NCBI GenBank assembly: GCA_016867115.1
Contig: VGKG01000003.1
Span: 64,673-128,672, forward strand
DNA length: 64,000 nt
From: Candidatus Omnitrophota bacterium
GTDB taxonomy: Bacteria; Omnitrophota; Gorgyraeia; Gygaellales; Profunditerraquicolaceae
Reading direction: 5' to 3'
The notes beneath the pieces were generated by a model. That model worked only from the letters and a program-made list of their open reading frames with translations, did not search any database and was not told the DNA's origin. Positions 23,705 through 52,078 of the stretch are shown one piece after another (position 1 is the stretch's first letter; each line of letters begins with the position of its first letter). The position numbers were made by a program, and so were the translations under genes.

Positions 23705-24517
23705 ATGTTTAGCAAAATAACGGAAGCACAGATCAGCAGGGCGATCGTAGGAGAGTTTACCAGGTGGTTTGATGATTATATTACTTCCGATGTCATCATC
23801 GTCGGCGCCGGGCCCAGCGGCCTTATGGCAGGGCGCGACCTGGCTAATGCAGGGATCAAGACCCTGATCATCGAAAGCAACAATTATATCGGCGGAGGTT
23901 TTTGGGTCGGCGGTTATTTCATGAATACCCTGACCTTCAGGTCTCCGGCAGAGGATATCCTGGATGAACTGAAGATACCTCATAAGAGGATAGAAGACGG
24001 GTTGTCTGTCGCGGACGGCCCTTCTGCCTGCTCAAAGCTCATCTCCGCCACATGCGATTCAGGGGCAAAGATCCTGAACCTCACTAAGTTCGATGACGTG
24101 GTCCTGCGCAATCAGCGGGTTGAGGGGGCGGTGGTCAACTGGGCCCCGGTCTCGGCGTTACCCCGGCAGATCACCTGCGTAGACCCGATCGCCCTGGAAG
24201 CAAAGGTAGTGGTTGATGCTACAGGCCATGATGCCTGGGTAGCCCGGAGCCTCGAGAAGAGAGGGTTATTGAAATTGCAAAGTTTCGGCCCTATGGATGT
24301 CGTGCTTTCAGAAGGGCTGGTGGTAGAAAAGAGCGGTGAGATCTTCCCGGGGCTCTTTGCTATCGGTATGGCAGTATCTTCTGTCTACGGGATACCGCGC
24401 ATGGGGCCTACTTTTGCCGGGATGCTTTTTTCAGGAAGAAAAGCTGCTCAGGAAATAATCAAGCTATTCTCCTGCACAGGGAGCTCTACTTGTAAAGAGC
24501 CTGCCGCAGTAGTCTAA
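23705..24517 (+). CDS. thi4: Thiazole synthase Thi4 family, second paralogue, riboswitch-controlled
   Basis: IIVGAGPSGL, GGGFWVGG, VVDATGHDAWV and PRMGPTFAGMLFSG motifs. Confidence 0.85.
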   Translation: MFSKITEAQISRAIVGEFTRWFDDYITSDVIIVGAGPSGLMAGRDLANAGIKTLIIESNNYIGGGFWVGGYFMNTLTFRSPAEDILDELKIPHKRIEDGLSVADGPSACSKLISATCDSGAKILNLTKFDDVVLRNQRVEGAVVNWAPVSALPRQITCVDPIALEAKVVVDATGHDAWVARSLEKRGLLKLQSFGPMDVVLSEGLVVEKSGEIFPGLFAIGMAVSSVYGIPRMGPTFAGMLFSGRKAAQEIIKLFSCTGSSTCKEPAAVV

Positions 24518-32715: not shown

Positions 32716-32765
32716 CCGCCTCAAAATCTGTTGGAAAGGATAACACTGCGCGGTATAATATTGAC

Positions 32766-33080: not shown

Positions 33081-34151
33081 ATGAAAAAAGAGCGCGTAGT
33101 CGTAGCCATGAGCGGTGGGGTGGATTCTTCGGTAGCCGCCGCCCTTTTACAGAAAGAGGGCTATGAGGCGATCGGGATGACCATGTGCTTCAATCTTGCA
33201 GATACCGGGCGCAGGAAATCTGGCTGCTGCGGCCTGCAAGGCATAGAGGATGCCCGTCGCGTCGCCCATAAATTAGGCATCAGGCACTACGTCATCAATA
33301 TGCAGAAGCCCCTGAGAGATTTTATCATCAAGGATTTCTGCAAAGAATACCTGAGGGGCAGGACCCCGAATCCCTGCGTGCGCTGCAATCAGTTTTTAAA
33401 GTTCGACATCCTCTTAAAAAAAGCGCTTGAACTGGATGCCCGATATTTGGCTACCGGGCATTATGTCAGGAAGATCAGAACACCCCGCGGTTTTAAGTTA
33501 AAAAAGGCCAAGGACCCGGATAAAGACCAGTCGTATTTTCTCTACCGTCTTAATCAGTATCAACTAAGGCACGCGCTCTTTCCACTCGGCGATTATACTA
33601 AGACTGAGGTGAGGGAGCTGGCCCGTAAATTCGGCCTGGCAGTGGCTGAAAAGCCGGGGAGCCAGGAGATCTGCTTTCTGCCTGATAGCGATTACCGCGG
33701 GTTTCTAAAAAACCGGGTTAAAAAAAAGCTGCAGCCGGGTCCGATCGTAGACAAGGATGGCGATCTTTTAGGCAGGCACAGGGGAGTCGCGTTTTACACT
33801 GTCGGCCAGCGTGAAGGGCTAGGTTTAGCCCTGGGTTATCCGGCTTATATCAGCCGGATCGACGCAGCTAAGAATCAAATCGTAGTCGGCAGAAGAGAAG
33901 AGGCGATGGAAAAGGCATTTCTCGTCAGCCAGCTGAACCTTATTTCCGCACCCCACAAAAAGAAGGTTGCGGCCCGGGTGCGGATAAGGTATAATCACAA
34001 AGAGGCTCCCGCAGATATATTTTTTTGGGGCAGGAGAGCCAAAGTTATTTTCAGGGAGCCGCAGTTTGCCGTTACCCCGGGACAATCCGCGGTATTTTAC
34101 CGCCGGGGCACAGTCCTTGGCGGCGGCGCGATCGAGGAGGTCTTAGATTAG
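33081..34151 (+). CDS. mnmA: tRNA-specific 2-thiouridylase MnmA
   Basis: VVAMSGGVDSSV PP-loop; catalytic Cys motifs. Confidence 0.85.
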   Translation: MKKERVVVAMSGGVDSSVAAALLQKEGYEAIGMTMCFNLADTGRRKSGCCGLQGIEDARRVAHKLGIRHYVINMQKPLRDFIIKDFCKEYLRGRTPNPCVRCNQFLKFDILLKKALELDARYLATGHYVRKIRTPRGFKLKKAKDPDKDQSYFLYRLNQYQLRHALFPLGDYTKTEVRELARKFGLAVAEKPGSQEICFLPDSDYRGFLKNRVKKKLQPGPIVDKDGDLLGRHRGVAFYTVGQREGLGLALGYPAYISRIDAAKNQIVVGRREEAMEKAFLVSQLNLISAPHKKKVAARVRIRYNHKEAPADIFFWGRRAKVIFREPQFAVTPGQSAVFYRRGTVLGGGAIEEVLD

Positions 34152-35075
34152 ATGACTAAGAAAGAAGCCACAGGACTGGAAGATAAAATCCTAGAGCTGA
34201 AGAAGAAGCGTAATGCCGTAATCCTGGTGCACAATTACCAGCTTCCTGAGGTTCAGGATATCGCGGACTACCGGGGTGATTCTCTGGAGCTGAGCCGTAT
34301 CGCGGCCAAGACCGATGCCAAGGTGATCGTCTTCTGCGGGGTGCATTTCATGGCTGAGACCGCATCAATATTATGCCCGGAAAAGAAAGTGATCATGCCG
34401 GATATGCATTCCGGCTGCCCCATGGCCGATATGATCACCGCCCAGGACTTGAGAAGATTGAAAAAAGAGCACCCTAAGGCGGTGACGGTCGGTTACGTGA
34501 ATACTTCAGCGGAAGTAAAGGCAGAACTGGATTACTGCTGTACCTCGACTAACGCGGTGAAGGTAGTGAATTACCTGAAAGATAAGTTTGAGGAAATCGT
34601 TTTTGTGCCGGATAAGTACCTGGCGGATTATGTCTCCAAAGAGACACATAAAAAGCTCATCTTCTGGAACGGATTCTGTCCTACCCACGTAAAGATCCTG
34701 CCCGATGATATCAAGCGGGAGAAGAAATTTCATCCTTTTGCCAAGGTGATGGTGCACCCGGAGTGCCTTCCGGCAGTGGTAGCCATGGCAGATGCCGCGC
34801 TATCGACCAGTCAGATGTGCAAGTTTGCGCATGAATCCGAGGCCAAGGAGTTCATCGTGGGAACAGAGGTCGGATTGATCTATCGCCTCAAAAAAGATAA
34901 TCCCGCCAAGGAGTTTTACCCTGCCTCGGAAGCGGCAGTCTGCCCGAATATGAAACGGACTACCCAGGAAAAGGTGCTCTGGGCGCTGGAAGAGCTCAAA
35001 GAAGAGGTCAGGGTCGCGGATGAGGTGCGCCAGCGCGCGCGCCTGGCTATTGACCGGATGCTGGAAATCGTATAG
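34152..35075 (+). CDS. nadA: Quinolinate synthase NadA
   Basis: ILVHNYQ, VHFMAET, 307 aa. Confidence 0.85.
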   Translation: MTKKEATGLEDKILELKKKRNAVILVHNYQLPEVQDIADYRGDSLELSRIAAKTDAKVIVFCGVHFMAETASILCPEKKVIMPDMHSGCPMADMITAQDLRRLKKEHPKAVTVGYVNTSAEVKAELDYCCTSTNAVKVVNYLKDKFEEIVFVPDKYLADYVSKETHKKLIFWNGFCPTHVKILPDDIKREKKFHPFAKVMVHPECLPAVVAMADAALSTSQMCKFAHESEAKEFIVGTEVGLIYRLKKDNPAKEFYPASEAAVCPNMKRTTQEKVLWALEELKEEVRVADEVRQRARLAIDRMLEIV

Positions 35076-35704
35076 TGAACATCCCGATCGCCTACGAGGA
35101 TGACTGGCTCTTGATTGCCGATAAACCCACCGGACTCCTGACTATCCCTACCCCGAAAAAAGAATCCCGCACGCTGGTAAGCATCCTCAACGATGACCTA
35201 AAGAAAAAAGGCTCAACCTACCGCCTGCATCCCTGCCACCGCCTTGACCGGGAGACCTCCGGCCTGATCGTCTTTGCCAAGGGAAAGTCCGTGCAGAAAA
35301 AGATGATGGGGCTTTTCCGGGAGCGCAGGGTCAAGAAGACCTATGTCGCCTTTATCAGGGGGGATGATCTGCCTTCCGAAGGCGAGATAAAAAAAGCGAT
35401 TGAAGGAAAACCAGCACTCACCAGGTACAAACTCATCGAAAAGAGAAAAGACTTTTCCGTGGCAGAGGTCCTGCCCCTTACCGGCCGCACTAATCAGATC
35501 AGGATCCATTTCAAGGAGATCGGGCATCCCCTTTTAGGAGAGACAAGGTTCGCCTTTCGCCGCGATTTTAAGGTCAGGGTAAAACGGCTCATGCTCCATG
35601 CAGAGAACCTGGAGTTCGTGCATCCGGTGACCATGAATACCGTTTCGGTGAATAGCAAACTGCCTCAGGATATGCGGCAGCTCCTGGATAGAAGGGCGCA
35701 ATGA
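35075..35704 (+). CDS. RluA-family pseudouridine synthase
   Basis: HRLDRETSGL catalytic Asp motif. Confidence 0.8.
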   Translation: MNIPIAYEDDWLLIADKPTGLLTIPTPKKESRTLVSILNDDLKKKGSTYRLHPCHRLDRETSGLIVFAKGKSVQKKMMGLFRERRVKKTYVAFIRGDDLPSEGEIKKAIEGKPALTRYKLIEKRKDFSVAEVLPLTGRTNQIRIHFKEIGHPLLGETRFAFRRDFKVRVKRLMLHAENLEFVHPVTMNTVSVNSKLPQDMRQLLDRRAQ

Positions 35705-36927
35705 GCATAAAAAGAGCGTTTTTGATCTTCTCCTGGGCGCTTTACGACCTGGCAAACCAGTTCTTCGCCTTGAATGTGGTCTCGCTTTATTATGTGCGCT
35801 GGCTGACCCTGGAAAAGCAGGTGCCCGAGATATTTTACAGCATCTCCTTCGGCGTTTCACTATTCTTCGTCGGAATACTCTCGCCCGTTCTGGGCGCTAT
35901 TTCTGACCTCACCCAGAGAAGAAGGATATTCCTCATCCAGCTTACCGTCTTGTCTGTCGTCTTTACGCTGTTTCTGGGACTCACCGCAAATGTCGCCTTG
36001 AGCCTTATCTTCTTTGCCGTGGCGAACTTCGGCTGTCAGCTGGCGATCATCTTTAATAACGCCCAGATGATCGAGATAGCCCCGCAGGGAAAGGTGGGGC
36101 TGGTCTCCGGCTTCGGCAGGATGCTCGGTTATAGCGGCGCGATCATCGCCATGTACCTGGCCAAGCCCATAGTTTTGGAAAGAGGATACCAGGCGACCTT
36201 TATCCCCAGCGGCCTCCTCTTTTTGTTGTTTGCCCTGCCCTGCATGATCTTTGTCCGGGACCCGCATAGCAGGCAAAACATAAGATTGGCTTATTTCTTC
36301 CGGGGAGAAAGGGTCATAGCCAGCTTCGCGGCCTTAAGAAAGGCGCTTCTGGAGGTGAGGAAGGTCGCATCCCTGGCCAATTTTCTGAAGGCGGCATTTT
36401 TCGGGCTGGCTGCGGTCAACGTGATCATCCTCTTTATGTCAGTATACGCCACGCGCGTCTTCGGATTAAGCGAAATACAGATCATCCACCTGATCGTCTT
36501 CTCCACGCTTTTTGCCATTGCCGGAAGCATCGTCTCCGGCTTCATCAGCGACTATATCGGTTATAAACGCTGCCTGATGGGCGTATTTATCCTCTGGATA
36601 GCCGCCTTTATCGGCGCAAGCATAAGCCGGGATATCCGCCTATACTGGGCGATGGGAGCAATAGTGGGGGCAGCCCTGGGTGCTACCTGGGTCGTCTCGC
36701 GGGCGCTCGCCATAAAACTTGTTCCTCCGGAAAAGATCGGCGAGGTATTCGGGTTATTTAATTTTGTCGGCTACATTTCTGCGATCATGGGTGCTGTGTT
36801 TTGGGGCCTGGCCCTGTTATTCCTCTCCAGGTTCGGTGAGTCCGGTTACCGGATCGCGTTGGCAAGCCTTATCTTATTCATGGGCCTGGGGTTTGTGTAT
36901 TTACGCCGCCTCCCTCAGGATAAATGA
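35701..36927 (+). CDS. MFS transporter, LplT-like candidate lysophospholipid transporter
   Basis: 12-TM MFS topology; translationally coupled (ATGA) to the Aas-like gene, mirroring the E. coli lplT-aas operon. Confidence 0.55.
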   Translation: MSIKRAFLIFSWALYDLANQFFALNVVSLYYVRWLTLEKQVPEIFYSISFGVSLFFVGILSPVLGAISDLTQRRRIFLIQLTVLSVVFTLFLGLTANVALSLIFFAVANFGCQLAIIFNNAQMIEIAPQGKVGLVSGFGRMLGYSGAIIAMYLAKPIVLERGYQATFIPSGLLFLLFALPCMIFVRDPHSRQNIRLAYFFRGERVIASFAALRKALLEVRKVASLANFLKAAFFGLAAVNVIILFMSVYATRVFGLSEIQIIHLIVFSTLFAIAGSIVSGFISDYIGYKRCLMGVFILWIAAFIGASISRDIRLYWAMGAIVGAALGATWVVSRALAIKLVPPEKIGEVFGLFNFVGYISAIMGAVFWGLALLFLSRFGESGYRIALASLILFMGLGFVYLRRLPQDK

Positions 36928-39575
36928 TGCAGACGACAGGACCGGTGATCCAGGATATTTTTCATGAGACGGCCGAAAGGCTGTCTGAAAACGTCTCTTT
37001 ACAGTCAAAAAAGGGATCCGGATGGCAGAAAGTGACCTTCGGTGAGCTGGATGCTTCGGCGCAGAAGCTGGCGCGCTTTTTGCTCAGCGAGGGTTTTCAG
37101 AAAGGCGACGCCGCAGGGATAGTCCTGGAGAACCGTCCGGAGTGGGCGCAGATTTTCCTCGGCGTGATGTACGCGGGGCTGGTCGCAGTCCCCCTTGATC
37201 CCGCATTAAGCCAGCAGGAATTAAGGAACCTGCTGCTGGACAGCGCAGCAAAGGTCATTTTCTGCTCCCACGATACTTTTGCCAAAAAGGTCTCCCCGGA
37301 ACTTCACAGCAGGCTTGCCAAGATCGTCATCCTGGACAGCCCGGTCGCCCGGCCGCAGGATCTGGTAAGTTTTTCCGAGATAGAGGCTCAGGCGTTCCCG
37401 GAGATCGCCCTGCCGCAGACAGGGCCGCAGGCTCCGGCGCTTTTATTCTACACTTCCGGGACCACCGCTACTCCCAAGGGCGTGCTCCTGACCCATAATA
37501 ATATCTGCGCCAATTTTTTCAGCATCAAAAAGACGGGCGTTTATTCCTCTTCGGACAATACACTTTCGATCCTGCCCTTTTATCATACCTATGCCTTTAT
37601 GACGACACTGGTCGTGCCTCTTTTGACGGGAGGCAGGATCACTATTTTTGGCCTGAGTTTTAAACCTCAGGAACTTATTCGGGTTATCCGGGAAACGCAA
37701 ATTACGGTTATTATCGGGATACCGCATCTTTTTGTGCTGATCCACAAGGCCATCATCGAGGGGCTGAAAAAGCTCCCGCTAGTCCTAAGGCCGTTTTCCA
37801 GGTTCGGATTAGGCCGGTATCTGGGCAGGAGCCTACGCTTCATGGCCAGCGGAGGGGCCCGTCTTGATCCGAAGGTCTGCCGTGACCTGAACCGCTGGGG
37901 CCTGAAGTTGATCGAGGGTTACGGCCTGACCGAGGCCTCTCCGGTAGTTACTCTGAACCCCCTGCAAAAGATCAAGTGCGGTTCAGCGGGAAAGCCGCTC
38001 CCCGATATCCAGGTAAAGATAATCGATCCGGATAATTCCGGAGTGGGGCAGGTGGCTGTCCGCGGCGAAAACGTGATGCAGGGGTATTTTAAACAGCCGG
38101 GGCTCACTGCCCGGGCGGTCAGGGACGGCTGGCTTTATACAAAGGACCTGGGGTACCTGGACAAAGAGGGGTATTTATTCCTTACCGGGAGAGAAGAGGA
38201 GCTGATCGTCTTAAGCTCGGGGAAGAACATCTATCCCGAGGAACTGGAGGCCTATTACGCTGCAAACCCCTACATCAAAGAGCTCTGCATCCTGGAAAAA
38301 TACGAAGAGAAGTTCGGGCACCGCATGGAATCTTTGCATGCGGTGGTGGTGCCCGATCTTGAGTATTTCCGCTCCCGCAACGAGGCGAACATCCGGGAGA
38401 AGATCCGCTGGGAACTGGATAACCTGAGCCGCCAGCTTCCGGCATACGCGCACATCATGGGCTTTACCGTGACTAAAGAAGAGCTCCCCCGCACTACCCT
38501 GGGCAAGATCAAGAGGTTTGAAGTGAGGGAAAGGTATTTAGAGGCAAGGATGCCGAAAGTAAAACCTGAGGAGGTCGCTTTCTCGGAGGAGGACCTGCGG
38601 TTGCTGGAAGAGCCGGCCAGCCGCAAGATCATTAAGTTCCTCTCATCCGAATTAAAAAAGCCGGTCTATCTGGACAGCCATCTTGAGCTGGACCTGGGGA
38701 TCGATTCTCTGACACGGGTGGAGCTGGGCCTGGGCTTAGAAAGTTTATTTTCGCTGAAGATCCCGGAGGATATCCTCTATAGCATCTCGACGGTAAAGGA
38801 GGTCATCCTTAAGATAAAAGAATTGCTCAGCCGGCCTGCTCAGGGTCAGGCAGGCCAGCAGGAGCCGGCCTCCTGGAGCCGGATCCTGGAAGAGATGCCT
38901 TCAGAAGAGACCCTCGACAAAATCGGTACAGAGCCGTCATTTTTCAATAAGATAGCGACCTGGCTCTTTAAAGTTTTCTTCCTGGGGATGTTCAAAATCT
39001 TCTGGCTCCTTAGCGTAAGAGGCAGGGAGGACTTGCCTAAGGACGGCCCGTACATAGTTTCTCCGAATCATGCCAGTTACCTGGACGGTTTCGCCGTCTT
39101 CAGCAGCCTGCCTTTTAGCCTCGGGCTCAAGACCTATTTCATCGGTTACAGCGCTATCTTTGAGCATCCTCTGGTGAGATGGGCGATAAAAACCGGCCGC
39201 CTCATCCCTATCGATCCGAATACCAATCTTACTCAGGCCTTGCAGGCAGTGGCCTATTGTTTGCGGAAGAAGAAGATCGTCTGCATTTTCCCCGAAGGCA
39301 TGCGCGCCATCGATGAAAAGGTGGGAGAGTTTAAAAAAGGCATCGGCATATTGCTCAAAGAGATGGATATCCCGGCGGTCCCGGTGTATATTAAGGGTTC
39401 ACACGCCTCCTGGCCAAGGACTAGGCGTCTGCCCAGATTCTGCCGGATCAGGGTCTGTTTCGGCAAGCCGGCTGCCTGGAAAGAGCTGAAAGACGAGAAT
39501 ACGGAAAGCGCAGGCGACGATTACGAGGCGATAACCAGGGCGCTGAGGCAGAGGGTGATGAGGCTGGCATGTTGA
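36924..39575 (+). CDS. Three-domain acyl-ACP synthetase (AMP-binding) / acyl-carrier (PP-binding) / lysophospholipid acyltransferase (PlsC-type), Aas-like
   Basis: LFYTSGTTATPKG AMP-binding motif and ELPRTTLGKIKR; carrier motif DLGIDSL; C-terminal NHASYLD (HxxxxD) and FPEG acyltransferase motifs. Confidence 0.75.
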   Translation: MMQTTGPVIQDIFHETAERLSENVSLQSKKGSGWQKVTFGELDASAQKLARFLLSEGFQKGDAAGIVLENRPEWAQIFLGVMYAGLVAVPLDPALSQQELRNLLLDSAAKVIFCSHDTFAKKVSPELHSRLAKIVILDSPVARPQDLVSFSEIEAQAFPEIALPQTGPQAPALLFYTSGTTATPKGVLLTHNNICANFFSIKKTGVYSSSDNTLSILPFYHTYAFMTTLVVPLLTGGRITIFGLSFKPQELIRVIRETQITVIIGIPHLFVLIHKAIIEGLKKLPLVLRPFSRFGLGRYLGRSLRFMASGGARLDPKVCRDLNRWGLKLIEGYGLTEASPVVTLNPLQKIKCGSAGKPLPDIQVKIIDPDNSGVGQVAVRGENVMQGYFKQPGLTARAVRDGWLYTKDLGYLDKEGYLFLTGREEELIVLSSGKNIYPEELEAYYAANPYIKELCILEKYEEKFGHRMESLHAVVVPDLEYFRSRNEANIREKIRWELDNLSRQLPAYAHIMGFTVTKEELPRTTLGKIKRFEVRERYLEARMPKVKPEEVAFSEEDLRLLEEPASRKIIKFLSSELKKPVYLDSHLELDLGIDSLTRVELGLGLESLFSLKIPEDILYSISTVKEVILKIKELLSRPAQGQAGQQEPASWSRILEEMPSEETLDKIGTEPSFFNKIATWLFKVFFLGMFKIFWLLSVRGREDLPKDGPYIVSPNHASYLDGFAVFSSLPFSLGLKTYFIGYSAIFEHPLVRWAIKTGRLIPIDPNTNLTQALQAVAYCLRKKKIVCIFPEGMRAIDEKVGEFKKGIGILLKEMDIPAVPVYIKGSHASWPRTRRLPRFCRIRVCFGKPAAWKELKDENTESAGDDYEAITRALRQRVMRLAC

Positions 39576-40312
39576 AATACGCACTATTAGGCATTCTCCA
39601 GGGCCTGACCGAGTTTCTGCCGGTGAGCAGTTCAGGGCACCTGGTGATCTTTCAGAAGCTTCTCGGAGTGGCAGAGGAAGGGGTGGTCATTTCGGTAGTC
39701 TTGCATGCGGGAACCCTCTTTGCCCTGGCTATTTTTTTCATCCGGGACCTGTTGGCGATTTTGCGTCACGTAAGATTATTGCTCTTTATCCTGGCGGTGA
39801 CGTTGATCACGGGGTCAATCGGTATTGCGGGAAAAGACTTTTTTGAGGGGCTCTTCGGTTCTCCCCGGCTGGTCGCCTTTGCCCTGATCTTCACCGGCCT
39901 CGTACTTCTGGTCACGAAGAGATCCTGCGCCGGAACAAGGGAAAAGCCCGGGTTTAAAGATGCGCTTGTCTTAGGGCTGGCGCAGGCAACCTCGATCATA
40001 CCGGGCCTCTCGCGTTCAGGCATGACTATCTCGACGCTGTTATTCAGGAAGTTCGCCCCGGAGACTAGTTTTAAGCTCTCTTTCCTGGCCGCGATACCGG
40101 CGATATCCGGCGCGCTGCTTCTTGAGGCAGGAAAGGTGGATCTTGCCTTAAAGGCGCATGCCCCAGAGTTGCTTATAGGCTTTATTTTTAGTTTTTTAAC
40201 TGGACTTATTAGCCTTCAGGTATTAAAATCAATATTACGCAAGGAAAAATTCTATTTGTTCGGCTTCTATTGCTTCTTTCTGGCAATCATTACCCTTATA
40301 TTTTTAAGATGA
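39569..40312 (+). CDS. uppP: Undecaprenyl-diphosphatase UppP (BacA)
   Basis: GLTEFLPVSSSGH and PG.SRSG motifs. Confidence 0.85.
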   Translation: MLKYALLGILQGLTEFLPVSSSGHLVIFQKLLGVAEEGVVISVVLHAGTLFALAIFFIRDLLAILRHVRLLLFILAVTLITGSIGIAGKDFFEGLFGSPRLVAFALIFTGLVLLVTKRSCAGTREKPGFKDALVLGLAQATSIIPGLSRSGMTISTLLFRKFAPETSFKLSFLAAIPAISGALLLEAGKVDLALKAHAPELLIGFIFSFLTGLISLQVLKSILRKEKFYLFGFYCFFLAIITLIFLR

Positions 40313-41220
40313 GTATCATTGTCTTAGGCACAGTTGCCCTGGATTCGGTAAAGACTCCTCACGGAGAGCGCAGGCGGATGCTCGGCGGTTCGGCTGCGCA
40401 TTTTGCCATGTCCTGCCGCCTGTTTACCGACGTGCATCTGGTGGCGATCGTGGGAGAGGATTTTCCCGAAAGGCACGTCAGCTTTCTTCGCCGCAAAGGC
40501 ATTATCCTGACTTCGCTCATCCGAAGCAGGGGCGAGACTTTCAGGTGGAGCGGAGAATATAAGGGAGACCTGAATACCGCCCTTACCTTGAGTACGCAGC
40601 TTGGGGTGCTTTCCGCTTTCCGGCCGGTGATCCGGGAGGAGCAGCGTAATATCAAGCACATCTTTCTGGCCAATGTGGACCCCCAGATACAGAGGGGCCT
40701 GTTGAAACGGATGCATTCTCCGCAGCTGGTAGGCCTGGACAGCATGAACTACTGGATTAAGCATAAGCGCCGGGCGCTGGTAGGCCTCTTGAAAGAGGTG
40801 GATATCTACGTCGCTAATGACCAGGAGGCGCGCTCCCTCTCCGGAGAGCATAACCTGCTTAAGGCTGCGCGTTGCCTTAAGGCATTCGGGCCGAAGATGG
40901 TCCTGATCAAAAAGGGAGAGCACGGGGTCTTGTTCTACGCGCCGGGTGTTATTTTTTCGCTTCCGGCGTATCCTACGCATAAAGTAGTCGATCCTACCGG
41001 AGCAGGGGACACCTTTGCCGGAGGTTTCATGGGATATCTGGCGAAAGTGGGGAAGGTCAATACGCAAAGCATTAGAAAAGCCATTGCTTACGGGACAGTG
41101 GCCGCTTCTTTTAATGTCGAGGGATTTGGCCTTGAGCAGACCGCGCGCCTCACCGCCAAGGACCTGGAGGCGCGCCTTGCGCGTTTTAAAAAATATATTT
41201 CTCTGGAGGGAGAGGCTTGA
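40309..41220 (+). CDS. PfkB-family carbohydrate/nucleoside kinase
   Basis: GG motif and DPTGAGDTFAGGF anion hole; trimmed to ATG 40309, ATGA-coupled to uppP. Confidence 0.7.
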   Translation: MSIIVLGTVALDSVKTPHGERRRMLGGSAAHFAMSCRLFTDVHLVAIVGEDFPERHVSFLRRKGIILTSLIRSRGETFRWSGEYKGDLNTALTLSTQLGVLSAFRPVIREEQRNIKHIFLANVDPQIQRGLLKRMHSPQLVGLDSMNYWIKHKRRALVGLLKEVDIYVANDQEARSLSGEHNLLKAARCLKAFGPKMVLIKKGEHGVLFYAPGVIFSLPAYPTHKVVDPTGAGDTFAGGFMGYLAKVGKVNTQSIRKAIAYGTVAASFNVEGFGLEQTARLTAKDLEARLARFKKYISLEGEA

Positions 41221-45366: not shown

Positions 45367-45864
45367 ATGAAAAGATTGTTTATAGACTTAGATGTCTGCA
45401 ATAAATGCGAGGAGTGTAAGGTAACTTGCGACTATTTTTATCATCCGCAGAATAACGGGATCACGTCGCTGCGCGAGTATGCCACCTTTGCGACGATCTG
45501 CCGGCACTGTGAAGAAGCGCCCTGCGTCAACGCCTGTTACCATAACGCACTTGAGCGAGCCGCTGACGGCCACATCAAGCGCTACAAGATGCGCTGCACC
45601 AGCTGTAAAAGTTGCTCGGTAGCCTGCCCTTTTGGAGTGATCTTCCAGGATTTTATCCCTTATCTTGATTCCCGCTGCGATTACTGCACGGGCGAGACTA
45701 AGGAGCTGCCGAAGTGCCTCTCTACCTGCCCGGAAAAGGCAATTGAGGTCAAAGAAGTGGCTGAAGACCCGGAAAAGGATATCTATCTTGTGGGTGAGCA
45801 TCTGGCAGTGCATTCGCTCAAGTGGTCAAGGGAGGATGTGCAGCCTGCGCCGAAAAAAAGATGA
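45367..45864 (+). CDS. Polyferredoxin-type 4Fe-4S subunit (HycB/HyfA-like)
   Basis: Four Cys clusters: CNKCEECKVTC, CRHCEEAPCVNAC, CTSCKSCSVACP, CDYCTG...C. Confidence 0.6.
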   Translation: MKRLFIDLDVCNKCEECKVTCDYFYHPQNNGITSLREYATFATICRHCEEAPCVNACYHNALERAADGHIKRYKMRCTSCKSCSVACPFGVIFQDFIPYLDSRCDYCTGETKELPKCLSTCPEKAIEVKEVAEDPEKDIYLVGEHLAVHSLKWSREDVQPAPKKR

Positions 45865-46772
45865 AACTGCTGTTCGACTATCTAGTATTCCCCGGTTTTA
45901 TATTTAGCGCCTGTGTCGGCCTCATGGCCGGCTGGGTGGACAGGAAGGTTACTGCCAGGCTCCAGTGGCGCATAGGCCCGCCCTGGCATCAGAACTTCAC
46001 GGATATTTTAAAACTGCTCGGCAAGGAGACAATCGTTCCTGCCGGCACAAAGGCGACATTCCTACTGGCACCTTTTCTGGGCCTGGGCAGCCTGATCCTG
46101 GCAGCAACAATTCTTGGCCTCTCCGTAAGGAACCCCTTAGAGAGTTTTATCGGCGATCTGATCGTGGTCGTATATCTATTGACTATTCCGGCGATCTCCC
46201 TGATCATCGGAGCCTCCAGTTCCCAGAACCCTCTGGCTTCAGTCGGGGCTTCGCGGGAGATGAAGATGATTTTGGCTTATGAATTGCCGTTCATTCTGTC
46301 TATTGTCGCGGTGATTGTAAAAAGCTCAGGCGCAATAGAACTTGGCCAGATCTTGAACCACCAGCTTAATTCCGGTTCCAATATTTTTTCCTGGTCAGGG
46401 GCGCTTGCCTTTCTGGTCGCCATCTTGTGTATGCAGGCAAAGCTTGGGCTCGTCCCTTTTGATGCTTCAGAGGCAGAGCAGGAGATCATGGGAGGTACAT
46501 TGATCGAATATTCGGGCGCCCCCCTCGCAGTATTTAAATTGACCAAGGCGGTTATGCTCTACACCATGCCGTTTTTTCTGATCGTCCTGTTTCTGGGCAG
46601 GGATCTTAGTCCCCTGTTTATGATCGCAAAATACGCGATGCTCCTTGTGGTTATAGTACTGATCAAGAATACTAACCCGCGGCTGCGCATCGATCAGGCA
46701 TTAAGGTTTTTCTGGAGATTTCCGACGTTACTGGCTTTGATCGCCGTGATCCTGGCTTTATTCGGTAAGTAA
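45861..46772 (+). CDS. Membrane subunit MbhM/HycD/NuoH-like
   Basis: NuoH-family TM pattern; ATGA-coupled. Confidence 0.75.
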   Translation: MKLLFDYLVFPGFIFSACVGLMAGWVDRKVTARLQWRIGPPWHQNFTDILKLLGKETIVPAGTKATFLLAPFLGLGSLILAATILGLSVRNPLESFIGDLIVVVYLLTIPAISLIIGASSSQNPLASVGASREMKMILAYELPFILSIVAVIVKSSGAIELGQILNHQLNSGSNIFSWSGALAFLVAILCMQAKLGLVPFDASEAEQEIMGGTLIEYSGAPLAVFKLTKAVMLYTMPFFLIVLFLGRDLSPLFMIAKYAMLLVVIVLIKNTNPRLRIDQALRFFWRFPTLLALIAVILALFGK

Positions 46773-46773
46773 G

Positions 46774-47199
46774 ATGAGCTGGAAGATAAAAGCGCTAACT
46801 AAATCCATCTGGGTTTTTCACCTGAGCGTAGGTTCCTGCAACAACTGCGATATCGAGATCCTGGATTGCCTGACGCCCCGTTTTGATGTAGAGCGTTTCG
46901 GCATCCAGCTCATCGGTTCACCGCGCCACGCGGACGCGTTACTGGTCACTGGAGTCGCCACAAGGAAGAACATCCCGCGCATGAAAAAGATCTACGAACA
47001 GGTGCCTAAGCCCTGTGTAGTCATTGCCGTGGGCCAGTGTGCGATCTCGCAGCACATGTTCAGGTTCGGCTACAATGCGCCGCTTCCGGTGGATAAGATC
47101 CTTCCCGTGGACCTCTATATCCCCGGCTGCCCGCCGAAGCCTGAGGCGATGATCGACGGGATCGTGAAATTGGTGACTAAATTAAGAAAGGCAAAGTAA
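46774..47199 (+). CDS. [NiFe] hydrogenase small subunit, NuoB-like (MbhJ)
   Basis: GSCNNCDIE, GQCA and GCPP proximal-cluster Cys motifs. Confidence 0.8.
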   Translation: MSWKIKALTKSIWVFHLSVGSCNNCDIEILDCLTPRFDVERFGIQLIGSPRHADALLVTGVATRKNIPRMKKIYEQVPKPCVVIAVGQCAISQHMFRFGYNAPLPVDKILPVDLYIPGCPPKPEAMIDGIVKLVTKLRKAK

Positions 47200-47633
47200 T
47201 GGACGTAAGAAGCGCGATAAAAGATAAACTGGGCAATAAGATCATCGATTGGCAGGAAAAATCGACGCGGCGGAGCTACTTTAGCATCAAAAAAGAGCAC
47301 ATCCTCGAGACGGTAAAATTACTCTTTCACACCCTGGGCCTAAGATTCTCTATCGCCTCGGCTACAGATATGCCAGAAGGCCTTGAGATCCTCTACCATT
47401 TCAGTTTCGACGCGGCGGGTGAGTTTTATTCGGTGCGGGTGATCATCCCGGATAAGGCGCATCCCGAGGTGGATTCTATTACTCCGTTATTCCCGGGCGC
47501 TGAGTGGATCGAACGCGAGATGTGGGAACTCTTAGGGATCAATTTCAAGGGGCATCCGAATCTGAAGAGGCTGCTTTTGAGCGAAGACTGGCCGGAAGGC
47601 GAATATCCGTTGAGGCATAAAGATGAGTCATAA
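47199..47633 (+). CDS. NuoC-like 30-kDa subunit (MbhK)
   Basis: NuoC-family fold; E-x-E-x-W-E-L-LGI motif. Confidence 0.75.
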   Translation: MDVRSAIKDKLGNKIIDWQEKSTRRSYFSIKKEHILETVKLLFHTLGLRFSIASATDMPEGLEILYHFSFDAAGEFYSVRVIIPDKAHPEVDSITPLFPGAEWIEREMWELLGINFKGHPNLKRLLLSEDWPEGEYPLRHKDES

Positions 47634-48816
47634 AGTCATCGTACCCATAGGGCCGTATCATCCACTGCAGGAAGAGCCGGAGTTTTTCCAGCTTTATGTG
47701 GAGGGAGAAAAGGTCGTCGATATCGATATCATCATCGGGTATAATCACCGCGGCATTGAGAAGCTCTCCGAGTCCAAGCACATTGACCAGGTGCCTTTCC
47801 TGGTCGAGCGCATCTGCGGGATCTGCTCTTCCAGCCACCCTTACGCCTATGTGCTGGCAGTAGAGGACATCTTAGGAGGAGAGGCAAGCGTTGTACCGGA
47901 GAGGGCCCTCTATATCCGCACTATTATTGATGAATTACAAAGGATTCACAGCCACCTGTTGTGGCTGGGTCTTGCCGGCCATTTCATAGGTTATAATACG
48001 GTCTGGATGTGGGCCTGGAAATACCGCGAGCCGGTGCTGGACATGTTTGAGATGGTTACCGGAAACCGGAATAACTACGCCATGTTTAAGGTCGGCGGAG
48101 TGCGCCGGGATATTAAAGACGAGGACATTCCGGTATTAAAGAAGGCCCTGGATGATTTAGTCCCTGCCCTTGGAATGTTTCGCGGTGCGGTAATGGATGA
48201 TCCGGTAATCCAGGCGCGCCTGAAAAACGTCGGAGTCTTAACCAAAGAGCAGGCCATTGACTGGTGCGTGATCGGCCCCACGGCCCGCGCCTCGGGAGTA
48301 AATATCGATGTCAGGAGAGATGAGCCCTATGGGGTTACGGATAAGATCAACTGGAACGTGATCGTTGAAAAAGAGGGAGACATCTTTTCCAAGACCGTGG
48401 TCAGGATTCTTGAGATGTATGAAAGCGTGAGCATGATCCGGCAGTGCCTGGATAAGATGCCTAAAGGCAGCATTGATGCCGATATCCAGGATATTCCTCC
48501 TGGTGAGGGAATCGGCAGGGTTGAGGCGCCGCGGGGTGAGTGCTTTCACTACGTAAAAACCGACGGGACGAACCGGCTGATCCGGCATAAGGTGCGCGCG
48601 CCCAGCTTCATGAATGTCGCCTCAAATAAAGTGGCGGCGGTGGGCGGGACAATTTCAGATGCCACCATTACCCTGGCTGCGGTCGATCCCTGCTATTGCT
48701 GCACCGAGCGCGTGGCGGTCATCAATAAGATAGATAATAAAAAGATCCTGAACGGCTGGGACCTGATCAGGCTCTCCCAGGAAAAAACCCAAAAATTAAA
48801 GCTTCAGAAGAGATAG
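47623..48816 (+). CDS. Group 4 [NiFe] hydrogenase large subunit (MbhL/EchE/NuoD-like) with intact Ni-binding cysteines
   Basis: N-terminal RICGICSSSH and C-terminal DPCYCCTER CxxC pairs retained. Confidence 0.85.
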   Translation: MSHKVIVPIGPYHPLQEEPEFFQLYVEGEKVVDIDIIIGYNHRGIEKLSESKHIDQVPFLVERICGICSSSHPYAYVLAVEDILGGEASVVPERALYIRTIIDELQRIHSHLLWLGLAGHFIGYNTVWMWAWKYREPVLDMFEMVTGNRNNYAMFKVGGVRRDIKDEDIPVLKKALDDLVPALGMFRGAVMDDPVIQARLKNVGVLTKEQAIDWCVIGPTARASGVNIDVRRDEPYGVTDKINWNVIVEKEGDIFSKTVVRILEMYESVSMIRQCLDKMPKGSIDADIQDIPPGEGIGRVEAPRGECFHYVKTDGTNRLIRHKVRAPSFMNVASNKVAAVGGTISDATITLAAVDPCYCCTERVAVINKIDNKKILNGWDLIRLSQEKTQKLKLQKR

Positions 48817-48820
48817 ACAT

Positions 48821-49438
48821 ATGGAAAATCTATCCGCGATAAAGGAAAAGATTAATGAAATGGCAGCCCTGGTTGTATCAATGCTTGAGGCAACCTTCAA
48901 AGGGTTCATGAAGCATGATATAAAAATCCTTACCCGCGTATTAAAAGATGAAGACGCGCTGAATAAGACGGAAGAAGCCCTTACTGCATCTTTGGTGAAT
49001 CTCTCCAAAGGCGCTACGTCTGATACGGAGAGAGAAAATATCGCGCGCCTCTCCGACATAGTTACGGATCTGGAAGAGATCGGGGATTATATCAAAGATA
49101 TGGTTGAGAGGATTGAGATAAAGATAGAAGAGAAGCTCCTCTTTAGCGAAGAGGCATTGGATGAATACAAGCACGTTTACCGGGTGATTGAAACTGCGCT
49201 CTACGATATAGTAAACTCATTAAAACTGAATGATAAGAATTTTGCCCAGAGGATTTTAAGCGATGAGGGCCATGTGGATAGGCTGGCGCAGGAATACAGG
49301 CAGGCGCATACAGAGAGGCTCATTGCCGGAAAATGCGACCCCCGCGCCGGCAATATGTTTGTCGATCTTCTTGATTTTGCAGCCCAGATCTCTCACCATG
49401 CGATATCCGCGGCCAAGAGCATCCTGAAATTAAAATGA
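48821..49438 (+). CDS. PhoU-domain protein (two PhoU repeats) embedded in the hydrogenase operon
   Basis: 205 aa helical protein with duplicated E-x3-D PhoU-like motifs. Confidence 0.5.
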   Translation: MENLSAIKEKINEMAALVVSMLEATFKGFMKHDIKILTRVLKDEDALNKTEEALTASLVNLSKGATSDTERENIARLSDIVTDLEEIGDYIKDMVERIEIKIEEKLLFSEEALDEYKHVYRVIETALYDIVNSLKLNDKNFAQRILSDEGHVDRLAQEYRQAHTERLIAGKCDPRAGNMFVDLLDFAAQISHHAISAAKSILKLK

Positions 49439-51099
49439 TAGACTCTTTATACCCTTTATTTAAAGTGGACACCCTGAACGGCTTCGTGGCCCTGGCAGCC
49501 GGATTATTTACCGTTCTGACAGTGATTTTCTCTCTCAGGTTCATGAAGGGTAAGCCCGGGCTTACCCGGTATTATACCTATATTATAATGACCGCGGTCG
49601 CCTCTGCGGCGGCGGTCCTTTCCAATAACCTGATCTTACTCCTGGCCTGCTGGGGATTTCTCGGCCTGACCCTATATCTTCTGATTCTGACGAATAACGA
49701 TGCCGGCCTGATAGCAAAGAAAACCTTCATTATTGTGGGCGGCTCGGACGCCCTGATGCTTCTGGGGATAGGCATCATCTATTATCTTTCCGGTACGGTC
49801 CAGATGGACGAGATCAGTATTCCTTTGACCGGAGGCTCTCAGCTTCTGGCCGTCGTTGCTTATGTTTCGATCGCCATCGCCTGCTTCGCCAAAGCCGGGG
49901 CCATGCCTTTTCATTCCTGGATCCCGGATTGCGCGAAACTTGCGCCTGTGCCGGTAGTAGCATTTCTGCCTGCCTCCCTGGATAAATTATTGGGCATTTA
50001 CCTGTTGGCTAGGATCTCCCTCAATCTATTCGTGATGAGCGAGGCGATGAATATCTTCCTGATGCTGATCGGCGCCATCACCATCATCGCCGCGGTAATG
50101 ATGGCTTTGATCCAGCATAATATGAAGAAGCTCCTGGGTTACCATGCGGTTTCCCAGGTCGGATACATGGTTTTAGGTATCGGTACCGGAACACCCATCG
50201 GTATTGCGGGCGGGCTATTCCACATGCTGAATAATGCCGTATATAAATCCTGCCTCTTTCTGACCAGCGGTAACGTGGAGTATCGCACAGAGACTACTGA
50301 GCTGGATGAGCTGGGAGGCTTAAGCAGGGCCATGCCCCTGACTTATTTTGCCTGTTTAATTGCCAGCCTCTCTATCTCGGGTATCCCGCCTTTTAACGGC
50401 TTTGTCTCCAAGTGGATGGTCTATCAGGGGCTTATCGAACAGGCGGGGAGCTCCGGTTTCGTAATACGCTTTACGGCCGTTTTCTGCCTGGTGGCAGCCA
50501 TGTTTGGCTCAGGCCTGACCCTGGCCAGCTTTATGAAATTGATCCATGCCACATATCTTAGCCGCCAGCCCGACGCATTGAAGGCCAGAAAAATAAGCGA
50601 GGTTCCCTGGACGATGTGGCTTCCCTGCCTGGTCTTGGCGCTGATCTGTATTGTCTTTGGCGTCTTTGCCAATCAGCTGCCGCTTAAATACTTTATCCTT
50701 CCGGCAGTAGAAGGAGTATCCTTTATCGGGAGCTGGTATTCAGGATTGGCGACTTTGCTTATCGTCATCGGCCTCATCCTCGGTATTTTCGCCTTTAGGT
50801 TAAAAGGGCTGAAGCCCCTTGTCCGGGTAGATAGTGCCTGTGTGGGCGGAGAAGAACTTGACCTGGCTGCCAGCCGGGTTACCGGAACGGAATTTTATAA
50901 TACCATCAGGGACTTAGGCCCTTTAAAAAGGATTTATGCAAAAGCCGAAGCAGGCATTTTTGATATCTATGAGCAGGGAAAGGCCGCTGTTTTCAGTGTG
51001 GGGAAATTCCTGCAGTATCTGCATAACGGTATTTTACCGACGTACCTGGTCTGGACGCTTTTAGGGATGATCCTTTTATTTTTTATCCTGGTGAGATAA
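49435..51099 (+). CDS. Mrp antiporter-type subunit, NuoL/M/N family (MbhH-like)
   Basis: 14-TM antiporter-like fold; HMLNNAVYKSCLFL and GIPPFNGF motifs. Confidence 0.75.
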   Translation: MIDSLYPLFKVDTLNGFVALAAGLFTVLTVIFSLRFMKGKPGLTRYYTYIIMTAVASAAAVLSNNLILLLACWGFLGLTLYLLILTNNDAGLIAKKTFIIVGGSDALMLLGIGIIYYLSGTVQMDEISIPLTGGSQLLAVVAYVSIAIACFAKAGAMPFHSWIPDCAKLAPVPVVAFLPASLDKLLGIYLLARISLNLFVMSEAMNIFLMLIGAITIIAAVMMALIQHNMKKLLGYHAVSQVGYMVLGIGTGTPIGIAGGLFHMLNNAVYKSCLFLTSGNVEYRTETTELDELGGLSRAMPLTYFACLIASLSISGIPPFNGFVSKWMVYQGLIEQAGSSGFVIRFTAVFCLVAAMFGSGLTLASFMKLIHATYLSRQPDALKARKISEVPWTMWLPCLVLALICIVFGVFANQLPLKYFILPAVEGVSFIGSWYSGLATLLIVIGLILGIFAFRLKGLKPLVRVDSACVGGEELDLAASRVTGTEFYNTIRDLGPLKRIYAKAEAGIFDIYEQGKAAVFSVGKFLQYLHNGILPTYLVWTLLGMILLFFILVR

Positions 51100-51629
51100 T
51101 GGAACTACACCTGCTTTTACTCTTTATGATCATAACGGCCATCATCGCCATCGAGGTAAAGGACCTTTTATCCAGTGTCGTGGCCGTGGGCGCAGTGGGT
51201 TTTGCCCTTTGTGTCGCCTTTCTGATCCTGAAAGCGCCGGACCTGGCCATTACCCAGCTTGTGGTTGAGATCCTCTGCCTGATCATCCTGATCCGGGCGA
51301 CCATAAAGAAGGATTTGCCGCTGGTGATTGAAGGCCGCTGGGTCTTCAATACGGTCTCGACGGTGGTCTTTGTCGCGGTCTTTCTTTTCTTTGCCTATGC
51401 TGCACTCCGGGAACTTCCCCAGTTCGGTGAGCCGATGATGTCGGTGGTCAAAAAATATCTGGAAGAGGGGACGAGTGAGACCGGAGCGGTAAATCTGGTT
51501 ACTGCCGTGATCCTTGATTTTCGCGCCTATGATACGCTGGGAGAAGCCACGGTTCTATTTACCGCGGTGATCGGCATTATGGCGGTGCTTCGGCCTCGGG
51601 GAAGAAAAAAAGTTGAGGAGAAGGAATAA
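51099..51629 (+). CDS. MnhB-related membrane subunit (DUF4040 / MbhD-E-like)
   Basis: Hydrophobic 176 aa; position within the Mrp module. Confidence 0.5.
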   Translation: MELHLLLLFMIITAIIAIEVKDLLSSVVAVGAVGFALCVAFLILKAPDLAITQLVVEILCLIILIRATIKKDLPLVIEGRWVFNTVSTVVFVAVFLFFAYAALRELPQFGEPMMSVVKKYLEEGTSETGAVNLVTAVILDFRAYDTLGEATVLFTAVIGIMAVLRPRGRKKVEEKE

Positions 51630-52078
51630 TGGCCTTTGAGCAAAAAAGCGGGATGTCTCTGATCGTTAAGACCATTACCCGCCTGACCGTCGGCCTGATC
51701 TTAATCTTTGGCATTTACATAGTCTTGCACGGGCACCTGTCTCCCGGCGGCGGATTTGCCGGAGGCGTGATCATTGCCCTGGCCTTTGTGCACCTGATGC
51801 TTGCCTTTGGCAAAGACGCCGTCACTACCAGGATCTCTAAAGAGATGGCTTCAAATCTTGAGAGTATCGGCGCGCTCATGTTCCTGGTCATCGCCCTGAT
51901 CGGTTATTTCGGAGGTTCATTCTTTCTGAATATCCTGAGCAAAGGTACTCCGTTTGAGCTGTTTAGTTCCGGTACTATTCCCTTAAGTAACGCCGCAATC
52001 AGTTTAAAAGTAGGGGTAGGGCTATTTGCCATATTCCTGGCATTGGTGATATTAGAGGGGTCGAAGAGGGAGAAATGA
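51629..52078 (+). CDS. Mrp subunit B (MnhB)
   Basis: LSPGGGFAGG signature. Confidence 0.65.
   Translation: MAFEQKSGMSLIVKTITRLTVGLILIFGIYIVLHGHLSPGGGFAGGVIIALAFVHLMLAFGKDAVTTRISKEMASNLESIGALMFLVIALIGYFGGSFFLNILSKGTPFELFSSGTIPLSNAAISLKVGVGLFAIFLALVILEGSKREK

Follow-up and report, generated by a model that had tools for sequence, protein, structure and literature searches.

The 64,000-nucleotide stretch of DNA analysed here (the window; contig VGKG01000003.1 of the Candidatus Omnitrophota assembly GCA_016867115.1) carries two overlapping plus-strand genes, the first specifying a 408-residue transporter of the major facilitator superfamily (MFS) and the second an 883-residue protein in which an adenylation domain, an acyl carrier protein (ACP) domain and an acyltransferase domain follow one another on a single chain (Table 1). 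Judging from its motifs and domain homologies, the tri-domain protein may be a self-loading, Aas-type lipid O-acyltransferase to which the MFS protein would supply the lipid substrate, a proposal that we think has about an even chance of being right.

Both open reading frames (ORFs) were verified. They share four nucleotides, the TGA stop codon of the MFS gene overlapping the ATG of the tri-domain gene at the junction gataaATGAtgcag. The 883-residue product is 100% identical to a protein from a metagenome-assembled genome (MAG) at NCBI, where it is annotated merely as an “AMP-binding protein.” An identical, unsplit gene is present on seven independent contigs from the JGI and Logan assemblies, and the gene is also unsplit in all 67 of the related loci which hold it complete; together these rule out an assembly artefact or a gene split in reality, the latter a possibility raised with the original prediction. 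An origin from a mobile element was likewise rejected, there being no plasmid match and a GC content, overall and at third codon positions (GC3), resembling that of the neighbouring genes.

Table 1. Window coordinates of the MFS gene, the tri-domain gene with its parts, and the two flanking genes.
Feature	Position	Strand	Basis
MFS transporter gene, UMF1/Atg22-like, 408 amino acids, about 12 transmembrane helices	35701..36927	+	Pfam MFS_1, ATG22; AlphaFold2
ATGA start/stop overlap of the MFS and tri-domain genes	36924..36927	+	sequence
Tri-domain gene, 883 amino acids: adenylation, acyl carrier, PlsC/Aas-type acyltransferase	36924..39575	+	Pfam, NCBIfam, alignment, AlphaFold2
ANL-type adenylation (acyl-AMP forming) domain, N-subdomain residues 13–389, C-subdomain residues 426–539	36960..38540	+	Pfam, structures, alignment
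Built-in acyl carrier (PP-binding) domain, residues 564–636	38613..38831	+	PF00550, alignment, AlphaFold2
Linker helices and long amphipathic/hydrophobic helix (residues 673–694, FFNKIATWLFKVFFLGMFKIFW) before the acyltransferase core	38874..39005	+	AlphaFold2, hydropathy
PlsC/Aas-type acyltransferase domain, residues 697–824	39012..39395	+	PF01553, alignment
Upstream flank: RluA-type pseudouridine synthase, housekeeping, outside the system	35075..35704	+	Pfam
Downstream flank: UppP/BacA undecaprenyl-diphosphatase, envelope housekeeping gene	39569..40312	+	Pfam, NCBIfam

Adenylation domain and overall architecture

The two subdomains of the adenylation domain were recognized by Pfam as AMP-binding [8.8e-81] and AMP-binding_C_3. 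The adenylation motifs lie at residues 177–181 (TSGTT) and 332–337 (GYGLTE), at D408, and at K528, the A10 lysine. When the best 120 database relatives (805–929 amino acids, 49–76% identity) were aligned, TSGTT, GxGxTE, D408 and K528 proved invariant in every one of them. Nearly all of these relatives carry the same three Pfam domains, and the arrangement put forward in the original prediction, that is, AMP-binding, PP-binding and Acyltransferase on one chain, was borne out by the Pfam scan. A fatty acyl-AMP ligase subtype was considered for the adenylation domain and rejected, since PRK09192 gave a weak, partial match well under the acyl-CoA-ligase and Aas-type models.

The AlphaFold2 (AF2) model of the tri-domain protein has a mean predicted local distance difference test (pLDDT) value of 81.8, with low-scoring linkers on either side of the carrier domain (residues 542–550 and 639–646). 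A full-length fold search with this model returned ANL enzymes and didomains of adenylation and peptidyl carrier protein (A-PCP) exclusively, and no solved structural equivalent of the whole tri-domain protein was found in that search.

Carrier domain

The middle region possesses a PF00550 [PP-binding] motif at residues 569–627, scoring 29.2 bits against a gathering score of 20.8, and thus lies, as had been claimed, between the AMP-binding and acyltransferase domains. Within it DLGIDSL occupies residues 590–596, the codon of the putative phosphopantetheine-attachment residue, Ser595, having been checked at 38706–38708. In the 120 homologs S595, D590 and L591 are invariant and each of the other four positions of DLGIDSL is kept in 118–119. 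Ser595 falls in register with the phosphopantetheine serine of solved type II ACPs (DLgiDSLtrvEL here, DLkaDSLdtvEL there), and the AF2 model presents a four-helix bundle (helices 564–577, 595–609, 615–620 and 624–636) whose second helix begins at this same residue. Alignment and model both uphold the attachment serine expected in the middle region.

Variants with more than one carrier occur among relatives in a representative library, three PP-binding domains in tandem being present in P0246 and two in each of P0269 and P0277, while P0365 has two acyltransferase domains after its adenylation-ACP portion. Tandem carriers and double acyltransferases of this sort are typical of enzymes which truly use their carrier. 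Genes for a soluble ACP, for type II fatty acid synthesis (FASII) and for plsXYC were not found among the annotated genes of the window.

Acyltransferase domain

The C-terminal domain was identified as possessing a PF01553 [Acyltransferase] motif [9.6e-24; 84.1 bits, cutoff 23]. Its HX4D motif consists of H716 (codon 39069–39071) and D721 within NHASYLD (residues 715–721), and it is followed by motif II, RLIPIDP, at 759–765 and motif III, FPEGxR, at 789–794. Every one of the 120 homologs keeps H716 and F789, 119 of them have D721 and 119 have G792, so that the NHASYLD and FPEG (789–792) motifs read from the sequence at the outset are indeed present and conserved.

Ahead of the acyltransferase core lies a long helix (Table 1) with a Kyte-Doolittle peak of 1.75 at residue 680 and with lysines interspersed. 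Because it is hydrophobic and yet broken by lysines, an interfacial anchor fits better than a transmembrane span; based upon the analogy with PlsC, this helix is probably an anchor at the membrane interface.

Compared directly with Escherichia coli Aas, the adenylation domain shares 26% identity with the synthetase domain [3e-33] and the acyltransferase domain 24% identity with the acyltransferase domain [6e-12]. Both catalytic domains are therefore homologous to those of Aas and stand in swapped order, which agrees with the original prediction. The whole protein falls far under the curated Aas cutoffs (243 versus 1221 bits for PRK08633, 188 versus 1349 bits for PRK06814), and on three counts, its domain order, its carrier domain and its score, it does not belong to the curated Aas family. 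PRK08633 is the second-best NCBIfam match of the adenylation domain, at those 243 bits, and under the name “acyl-[ACP]-phospholipid O-acyltransferase” it is the best NCBIfam match of the acyltransferase region taken alone (88.8 bits). The same region scores 62 bits with TIGR00530, the model for 1-acylglycerol-3-phosphate acyltransferase (AGPAT; cutoff 102.95), and 42 bits with PRK08043, the E. coli-type Aas model (cutoff 886). Its best solved match is the PlsC protein of Thermotoga maritima [5KYM, 6.6e-10].

When motif II is aligned, RLIPIDP of the tri-domain protein stands opposite FVPLDP in Aas and VFLDR in T. maritima PlsC; at position 765 the 120 homologs have P, T or A, and none of them has R. 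In glycerol-3-phosphate acyltransferase (GPAT) and lysophosphatidic acid acyltransferase (LPAAT) enzymes the motif II arginine contacts the phosphate of glycerol 3-phosphate (G3P) or lysophosphatidic acid (LPA). The lack of this arginine, as in Aas, leans to an acceptor which bears a head group, and we would regard motif II as suggestive, though not decisive, of a lysophospholipid of that kind.

Might the protein nevertheless be a self-loading GPAT or LPAAT, one which places scavenged fatty acids onto G3P or LPA and so feeds membrane synthesis in ultra-small host-dependent cells, with no part in lysolipid repair? The best solved match of the domain is an LPAAT, TIGR00530 does give its 62 bits, and Omnitrophota include host-dependent or predatory forms (PMC10066038). 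That score, however, lies below both its cutoff and the score of the Aas-type model, motif II without the PlsC arginine matches Aas, and a KAS-type ketosynthase gene near some members of the family suggests fatty acid synthesis in at least some Omnitrophota. We consider such a GPAT or LPAAT unlikely.

MFS transporter

The 408-residue protein contains Pfam MFS_1 [1.4e-38] and ATG22-like [PF11700; 2.1e-16, 60.1 bits against a cutoff of 24.1] motifs, the latter present also in all 120 of the MFS homologs listed, for which the JGI name is “UMF1 family MFS transporter.” It has 11–12 hydrophobic helices and its AF2 model has a pLDDT of 86.6. A search of the literature found no characterised bacterial member of the UMF1/Atg22 family.

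The transporter had been called LplT-like, and this did not survive. Neither the LplT model NF008397 (cutoff 297 bits) nor the transporter portion of the LplT-Aas fusion models gave an NCBIfam match at E<=0.01, while the control, LplT of E. coli, reached 578.9 bits with NF008397 and 137 bits with PRK08633. In a BLASTP comparison with that same LplT the best segment had 16.9 bits [E 1.1]. LplT identity is ruled out by these results, the family being UMF1/Atg22, and by sequence comparison the term “LplT-like” appears valid at the superfamily level only. A second MFS gene in the window (55925–57163, plus strand) is EntS-like [TIGR00900, 202 bits; EntS model, 177 bits] and its product weakly matches the MFS part of PRK08633 (45.7 bits); it is nearer to the LplT lineage than is the 408-residue protein.

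Gene neighbourhood

Species-representative genomes were scanned with a profile made of the ACP and acyltransferase domains (ACP+AT), and the neighbours were clustered from the 67 loci with a complete gene (individual loci carry L numbers below); the counts rest on simple ORF calling and on MAG contigs, many of which are short. At every locus scanned the adenylation domain was found directly upstream within the same gene.

The commonest neighbour is the UMF1 MFS gene, which adjoins the tri-domain gene in 25 of the 67 loci, in 24 of them immediately upstream and on the same strand. Alpha/beta-hydrolases of the Hydrolase_4 type lie nearby in 15 loci, several with 4-nt overlaps, a second PlsC-type acyltransferase in six, a patatin-like phospholipase in four, an ACP+acyltransferase di-domain protein in four, and the KAS-type ketosynthase in two. 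In 11 loci, all of one synteny block, uppP stands 3′ of the tri-domain gene. The rest of the neighbours are housekeeping genes. The hydrolases, patatins and acyltransferases speak strongly for a role of the enzyme in lipid turnover, in which the alpha/beta-hydrolases could supply fatty acid or lysolipid, or act as editing thioesterases for the carrier.

Based upon a neighbour-joining tree, adjacency to the MFS gene spans about 12 differing flank contexts in the clade to which the window belongs, and a distant clade of tri-domain genes (L055, L056 and L059) shows it again. Other arrangements are MFS-hydrolase-tri-domain (L025) and MFS-tri-domain-hydrolase (L055). This conservation of neighbourhood is moderate evidence that the MFS protein and the tri-domain protein are functionally connected.

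The ATGA overlap, which the original prediction took for translational coupling, exists, and it is not specific. The two genes belong to a plus-strand string, mnmA-nadA-rluA-MFS-tri-domain-uppP-pfkB (window 33081–41220), in which no two neighbours are separated by a spacer: mnmA directly abuts nadA, nadA and rluA share 1 nt, rluA and the MFS gene have an ATGA overlap of their own (35701–35704), 7 nt (ATGTTGA, 39569–39575) are common to the tri-domain gene and uppP, and uppP and pfkB also overlap. As all junctions of the string overlap or abut, the ATGA overlap is by itself weak evidence, and it was rejected as a sign of specific coupling. Taken as a whole, the earlier interpretation is upheld in its architecture, its carrier domain and its homology to Aas, fails in the LplT identity, and is weakened in its use of the overlap as a mark of coupling. 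The string, which continues with yqeY after pfkB and whose remaining members are unrelated housekeeping genes, is a compact super-operon of unrelated functions; a sigma-70-like promoter match lies before mnmA, at 32731–32759.

A distant Omnitrophota clade has proteins of about 484 amino acids in which a remnant adenylation C-subdomain is joined to a PP-binding domain and a PlsC-type acyltransferase (L064:2765-4219; also L046, L065 and L079), and their genes adjoin a full tri-domain gene. One adenylation domain may here serve two carrier-acyltransferase modules. With a second PlsC-type acyltransferase alongside in that clade, the di-domain proteins would also fit the successive acylations of a GPAT or LPAAT.

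Three smaller observations concern the same loci. A small DUF2784 protein recurs 3′ of the tri-domain gene (L062, L056 and L066). A DUF2784 gene (L092:7638-8054) also lies near an MFS ortholog with no adjoining tri-domain gene. In L012/L003:10741-15234, from a single relative, a 1497-residue RHS/YD-repeat protein with DUF6531 stands between the tri-domain gene and pfkB, in place of uppP, while the block is conserved in other respects.

Distribution and prior description

The ACP+AT profile matched 445 stretches in the species-representative genomes, the best 80 being almost all from Omnitrophota; as a yardstick, GTDB R232 holds about 700 Omnitrophota species. On this reckoning the tri-domain family is nearly phylum-wide in Omnitrophota. 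In an exhaustive representative search 759 clusters (50% identity) matched the profile at E<=1e-30, and most of the top cluster matches are tri-domain proteins of 830–1000 amino acids. Two MAGs, K_DeepCast_250m_m2_027 and PPR_0458, each have two tri-domain paralogs of different clades (L008/L080 and L067/L072). Near-universal presence in the phylum is what a core pathway would have, and this, like the two paralogs in some genomes, counts on the side of a GPAT or LPAAT.

The layout has been noticed before. Myxococcus xanthus ElbD has, on a single chain, acyl-CoA synthetase (ACS), ACP and AGPAT-like acyltransferase domains in the order seen here, the two being compared by published layout (PMC9131029). 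Nearly all ElbD homologues in other phyla are without the FAR1 domain, and lipid data are not available for them (PMC9131029); those without the reductase are reported from anaerobes and extremophiles (Lorenzen et al. 2014, cited through the review PMC9131029). The tri-domain protein is an uncharacterised variant whose layout matches these “ElbD-like homologues lacking the reductase domain.” A literature search on the ACS-ACP-acyltransferase architecture, in Omnitrophota or elsewhere, gave nothing specific, the Omnitrophota genomics papers covered being without discussion of lipids, and no description was found of the nearly Omnitrophota-wide presence, the Aas-type acyltransferase features, or the partnership with UMF1 MFS, hydrolase and patatin genes.

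The likeness raises the question of whether the protein belongs to the ElbD family and takes part in the formation of alkyl-glycerol (ether) lipids. Its domain order is that of the C-terminal three domains of ElbD, “ElbD-like homologues” without FAR1 are on record (PMC9131029), and split elbD variants with a stand-alone adenylation-ACP-acyltransferase ORF exist. Against these stand an AMP-binding domain which starts already at residue 13, with no reductase domain and no adjoining reductase gene, and a lack of elbB (HAD), elbC and elbE (NAD-epimerase) homologs both in the window and among the recurrent neighbours, the partners here being the UMF1 MFS, alpha/beta-hydrolase and patatin genes. Without a reductase the defining chemistry of the Elb pathway cannot occur on the 883-residue protein. 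Since the FAR1-like reductase and the elb operon partners are missing, it is not ElbD, and a role in ElbD-type ether lipid biosynthesis strikes us as extremely improbable.

Comparison with known systems

Like E. coli Aas, the tri-domain protein joins an ANL fatty-acid-activating domain and an HX4D acyltransferase on one polypeptide, keeps the ANL motifs and the HX4D histidine (H36 in Aas, H716 here), and has a PxDP-like motif II. The acyl group travels as an ACP thioester in Aas (PMC11416262), and the same is proposed here. Unlike Aas, in which the acyltransferase portion (Aas-T, 1–203) precedes the synthetase (Aas-S, 204–719) and no carrier is present (PMC11416262), our protein has its adenylation domain at 13–539, ACP at 564–636 and acyltransferase at 697–824, and whereas Aas takes soluble holo-ACP, here the ACP is in cis. 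In E. coli, too, aas overlaps its MFS gene in an operon, but there aas comes first, whereas here the MFS gene does. With LplT itself the MFS protein shares the operon partnership with an Aas-type enzyme, which is a feature of context only and not universal; by family it differs, being UMF1/Atg22.

In the fused LplT-Aas proteins (PRK08633/PRK06814, about 1140 amino acids) an MFS is likewise tied to an Aas-like enzyme. These are single chains in the order MFS-acyltransferase-adenylation with no ACP domain, whereas the MFS here has a gene to itself and is of another family. T. maritima PlsC (5KYM), a 1-acyl-sn-glycerol-3-phosphate acyltransferase, has the HX4D and FPEGxR motifs and helices before the core which are able to sit in the membrane interface; it differs as a stand-alone protein taking acyl-ACP or acyl-CoA in trans and in its motif II (VFLDR versus LIPIDP). 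A carrier loaded in cis after adenylation is found also in the A-PCP/ACP loading didomains of non-ribosomal peptide and polyketide synthases, for example McyG A-PCP [4R0M], to which the structural alignment covers the adenylation and carrier domains over 682 columns. In those didomains the acyl group passes to condensation or ketosynthase domains; here, where no assembly line exists, it would meet an acyltransferase for membrane lipids. We propose that the system works most like Aas-LplT and is built like ElbD minus the reductase.

Proposed function

From these features we infer a fatty acid substrate, an acyl relay in cis, a lysophospholipid acceptor and a supplying role for the MFS protein. 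The N-terminal ANL domain would convert a free, presumably long-chain, fatty acid and ATP to acyl-AMP, and the acyl group would then move onto the phosphopantetheine thiol at Ser595 of the protein’s own carrier domain. The carrier, tethered by two flexible linkers, would bring the acyl-thioester to the PlsC/Aas-type domain, which the amphipathic helix may place at the cytoplasmic face of the inner membrane. There, by catalysis through His716 and Asp721, a lysophospholipid would be acylated on its free hydroxyl, giving a diacyl lipid with neither CoA nor soluble ACP. In this way the enzyme probably puts fatty acids back on membrane lipids that have been damaged or scavenged. The UMF1-type MFS protein would supply the lipid, either a lysolipid which it flips from the periplasm or the outer leaflet or, possibly, a fatty acid.

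The loading steps have a direct precedent in M. xanthus ElbD, whose identically arranged ACS and ACP domains were both active in vitro (PMC9131029). Overall the scheme follows E. coli Aas, an enzyme which forms acyl-ACP, then spends it on lysophospholipids that its MFS partner delivers, and couples physically to that partner (PMC11416262). The parts of the scheme differ in their standing. That the acyl group is relayed in cis from adenylation domain to ACP to acyltransferase we hold to be highly probable, and a glycerolipid is the likely acceptor. For a lysophospholipid in particular, as with Aas, our confidence is evenly divided, and the MFS protein as lipid supplier is suggested tentatively, with the balance of our opinion slightly against it. 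We propose by analogy that the MFS/tri-domain pair is a functional counterpart of LplT-Aas with no homology to LplT. Carried further, Omnitrophota might independently have built an analogue of LplT-Aas, as a system for repairing and scavenging lysophospholipids, from a permuted Aas-like enzyme with its own ACP and a UMF1/Atg22 flippase for lysolipid or fatty acid, the hydrolase and patatin genes being alternative upstream suppliers. This extended version we think rather doubtful; were it to hold, it would establish a phylum-wide lipid-salvage module suiting ultra-small, host-dependent cells and a first substrate class for bacterial UMF1/Atg22 transporters. The window also holds a PagL-like lipid A deacylase gene (PF09411; 4159–4734, minus strand), the sole minus-strand gene of that stretch, which points to a lipopolysaccharide-containing outer membrane and thereby to lysolipid-type by-products arising in the envelope.

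A number of observations weigh against the proposed function. The adenylation domain resembles CoA ligases most, both by NCBIfam and by structure, its closest solved structures being acyl/aryl-CoA ligases, and release of acyl-CoA is thus possible. No gene for a phosphopantetheinyl transferase of the ACPS or Sfp type is present among the annotated genes of the window. For ElbD, acyltransferase activity was undetectable in vitro (PMC9131029). On the acceptor side, the AGPAT model outscores the E. coli-type Aas model PRK08043, which leaves the acceptor class unsettled. As to the transporter, it has no specific similarity to LplT; its closest solved relative, LtaA [6S7V], was matched by the family profile at an E value of merely 1e-4, the other weak PDB match in sequence and profile comparison being SV2A; and AF2 with Foldseek gave a generic MFS list (SV2A, an Rv1410 homologue, AmpG, MCT8 and VMAT) which does not discriminate. 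Loci L044 and L053 have lost the MFS gene from the same synteny block, and three MFS orthologs, 58–61% identical, do not lie beside a tri-domain gene. Those three were picked deliberately from contigs outside the tri-domain hit list and so show merely that the linkage is not obligatory.

Several of these points would be explained if the MFS protein were a bystander, that is, if the enzyme functions as described while its neighbour carries an unrelated solute and their adjacency is the synteny of a compact genome. The unspecific ATGA in a string whose junctions all overlap or lack a spacer, a UMF1/Atg22 family with no recorded lipid substrate, the lack of LplT similarity, the orthologs found apart and the roughly 60% of tri-domain loci which have no MFS gene all agree with this. 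Yet the adjacency is kept where all other flanks differ (L007/L010, L017, L018, L024, L025, L028/L029, L062 and L070) and recurs in the distant clade, the MFS outnumbers every other neighbour, and the pairing mirrors the logic of the aas-lplT operon. We regard a bystander as a real possibility, though one short of probable.

The LtaA match bears on a further alternative, since LtaA is a proton-coupled glycolipid flippase (6S7V): the acceptor could be something other than a glycerophospholipid, such as a lyso-aminolipid, as with OlsA, a glycolipid, or an intermediate related to lipid A. PF01553 includes OlsA, there is a weak match of 20.6 bits to the lyso-ornithine-lipid acyltransferase model, and envelope genes lie nearby, namely uppP downstream and the PagL-like gene elsewhere in the window. 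The OlsA score, however, is far under its cutoff of 300 and far under what the Aas and AGPAT models give, the recurrent neighbours include no olsB-like or glycosyltransferase gene, and the patatin and lysophospholipase-like neighbours indicate glycerolipids, so that an acceptor of this kind seems to us quite improbable.

Should the self-loading Aas-type acyltransferase prove to be what the tri-domain protein is, a mostly ultra-small and partly host-dependent phylum would recycle or scavenge fatty acids into membrane lipids by a single self-contained enzyme bypassing CoA and the soluble ACP pool. The large group of “ElbD-like proteins without reductase” would acquire a function, and bacterial UMF1/Atg22 transporters might gain a first substrate. 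The protein would also offer a tractable model of how an acyl carrier travels back and forth from the site of adenylation to an acyltransferase bound to the membrane. In practical terms the gain is modest, namely a better annotation for proteins now called no more than “long-chain acyl-CoA synthetase” or “AMP-binding protein” and a candidate single-enzyme tool for putting free fatty acids into phospholipids.

Other features of the window

Two paralogs of the Thi4 family are encoded on the plus strand at 599–1375 and 23705–24517 [1.6e-81 and 3.5e-62]. From about 45800 to 55200, also on the plus strand, there is a co-directional cluster resembling a membrane-bound [NiFe] hydrogenase of the Mbh/Mrp type with a Na+/H+ antiporter module; it includes NADHdh, Oxidored_q6, Complex1_30kDa, NiFeSe_Hases/Complex1_49kDa, PhoU-like, two Proton_antipo_M, MbhD/E, MnhB and MNHE/MrpF/MnhG.

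A gene for a POTRA/ShlB-type (TpsB) outer-membrane transporter occupies 59162–60859 on the plus strand and is followed, from 60876, by a plus-strand ORF of at least 1041 amino acids which is still open at the end of the window. This ORF has an N-terminal “LINPNGILF” resembling that of two-partner secretion proteins and many repeats of about 45 amino acids (AITDNxALTVxGxTTLAAGAxNNITLDNxNNFSSVGITSGNNVTL). The product resembles an exoprotein of two-partner secretion and could be among the very long proteins of Omnitrophota. A 460-residue ORF on the minus strand (62600–63982) has no Pfam match and is probably a shadow of it.

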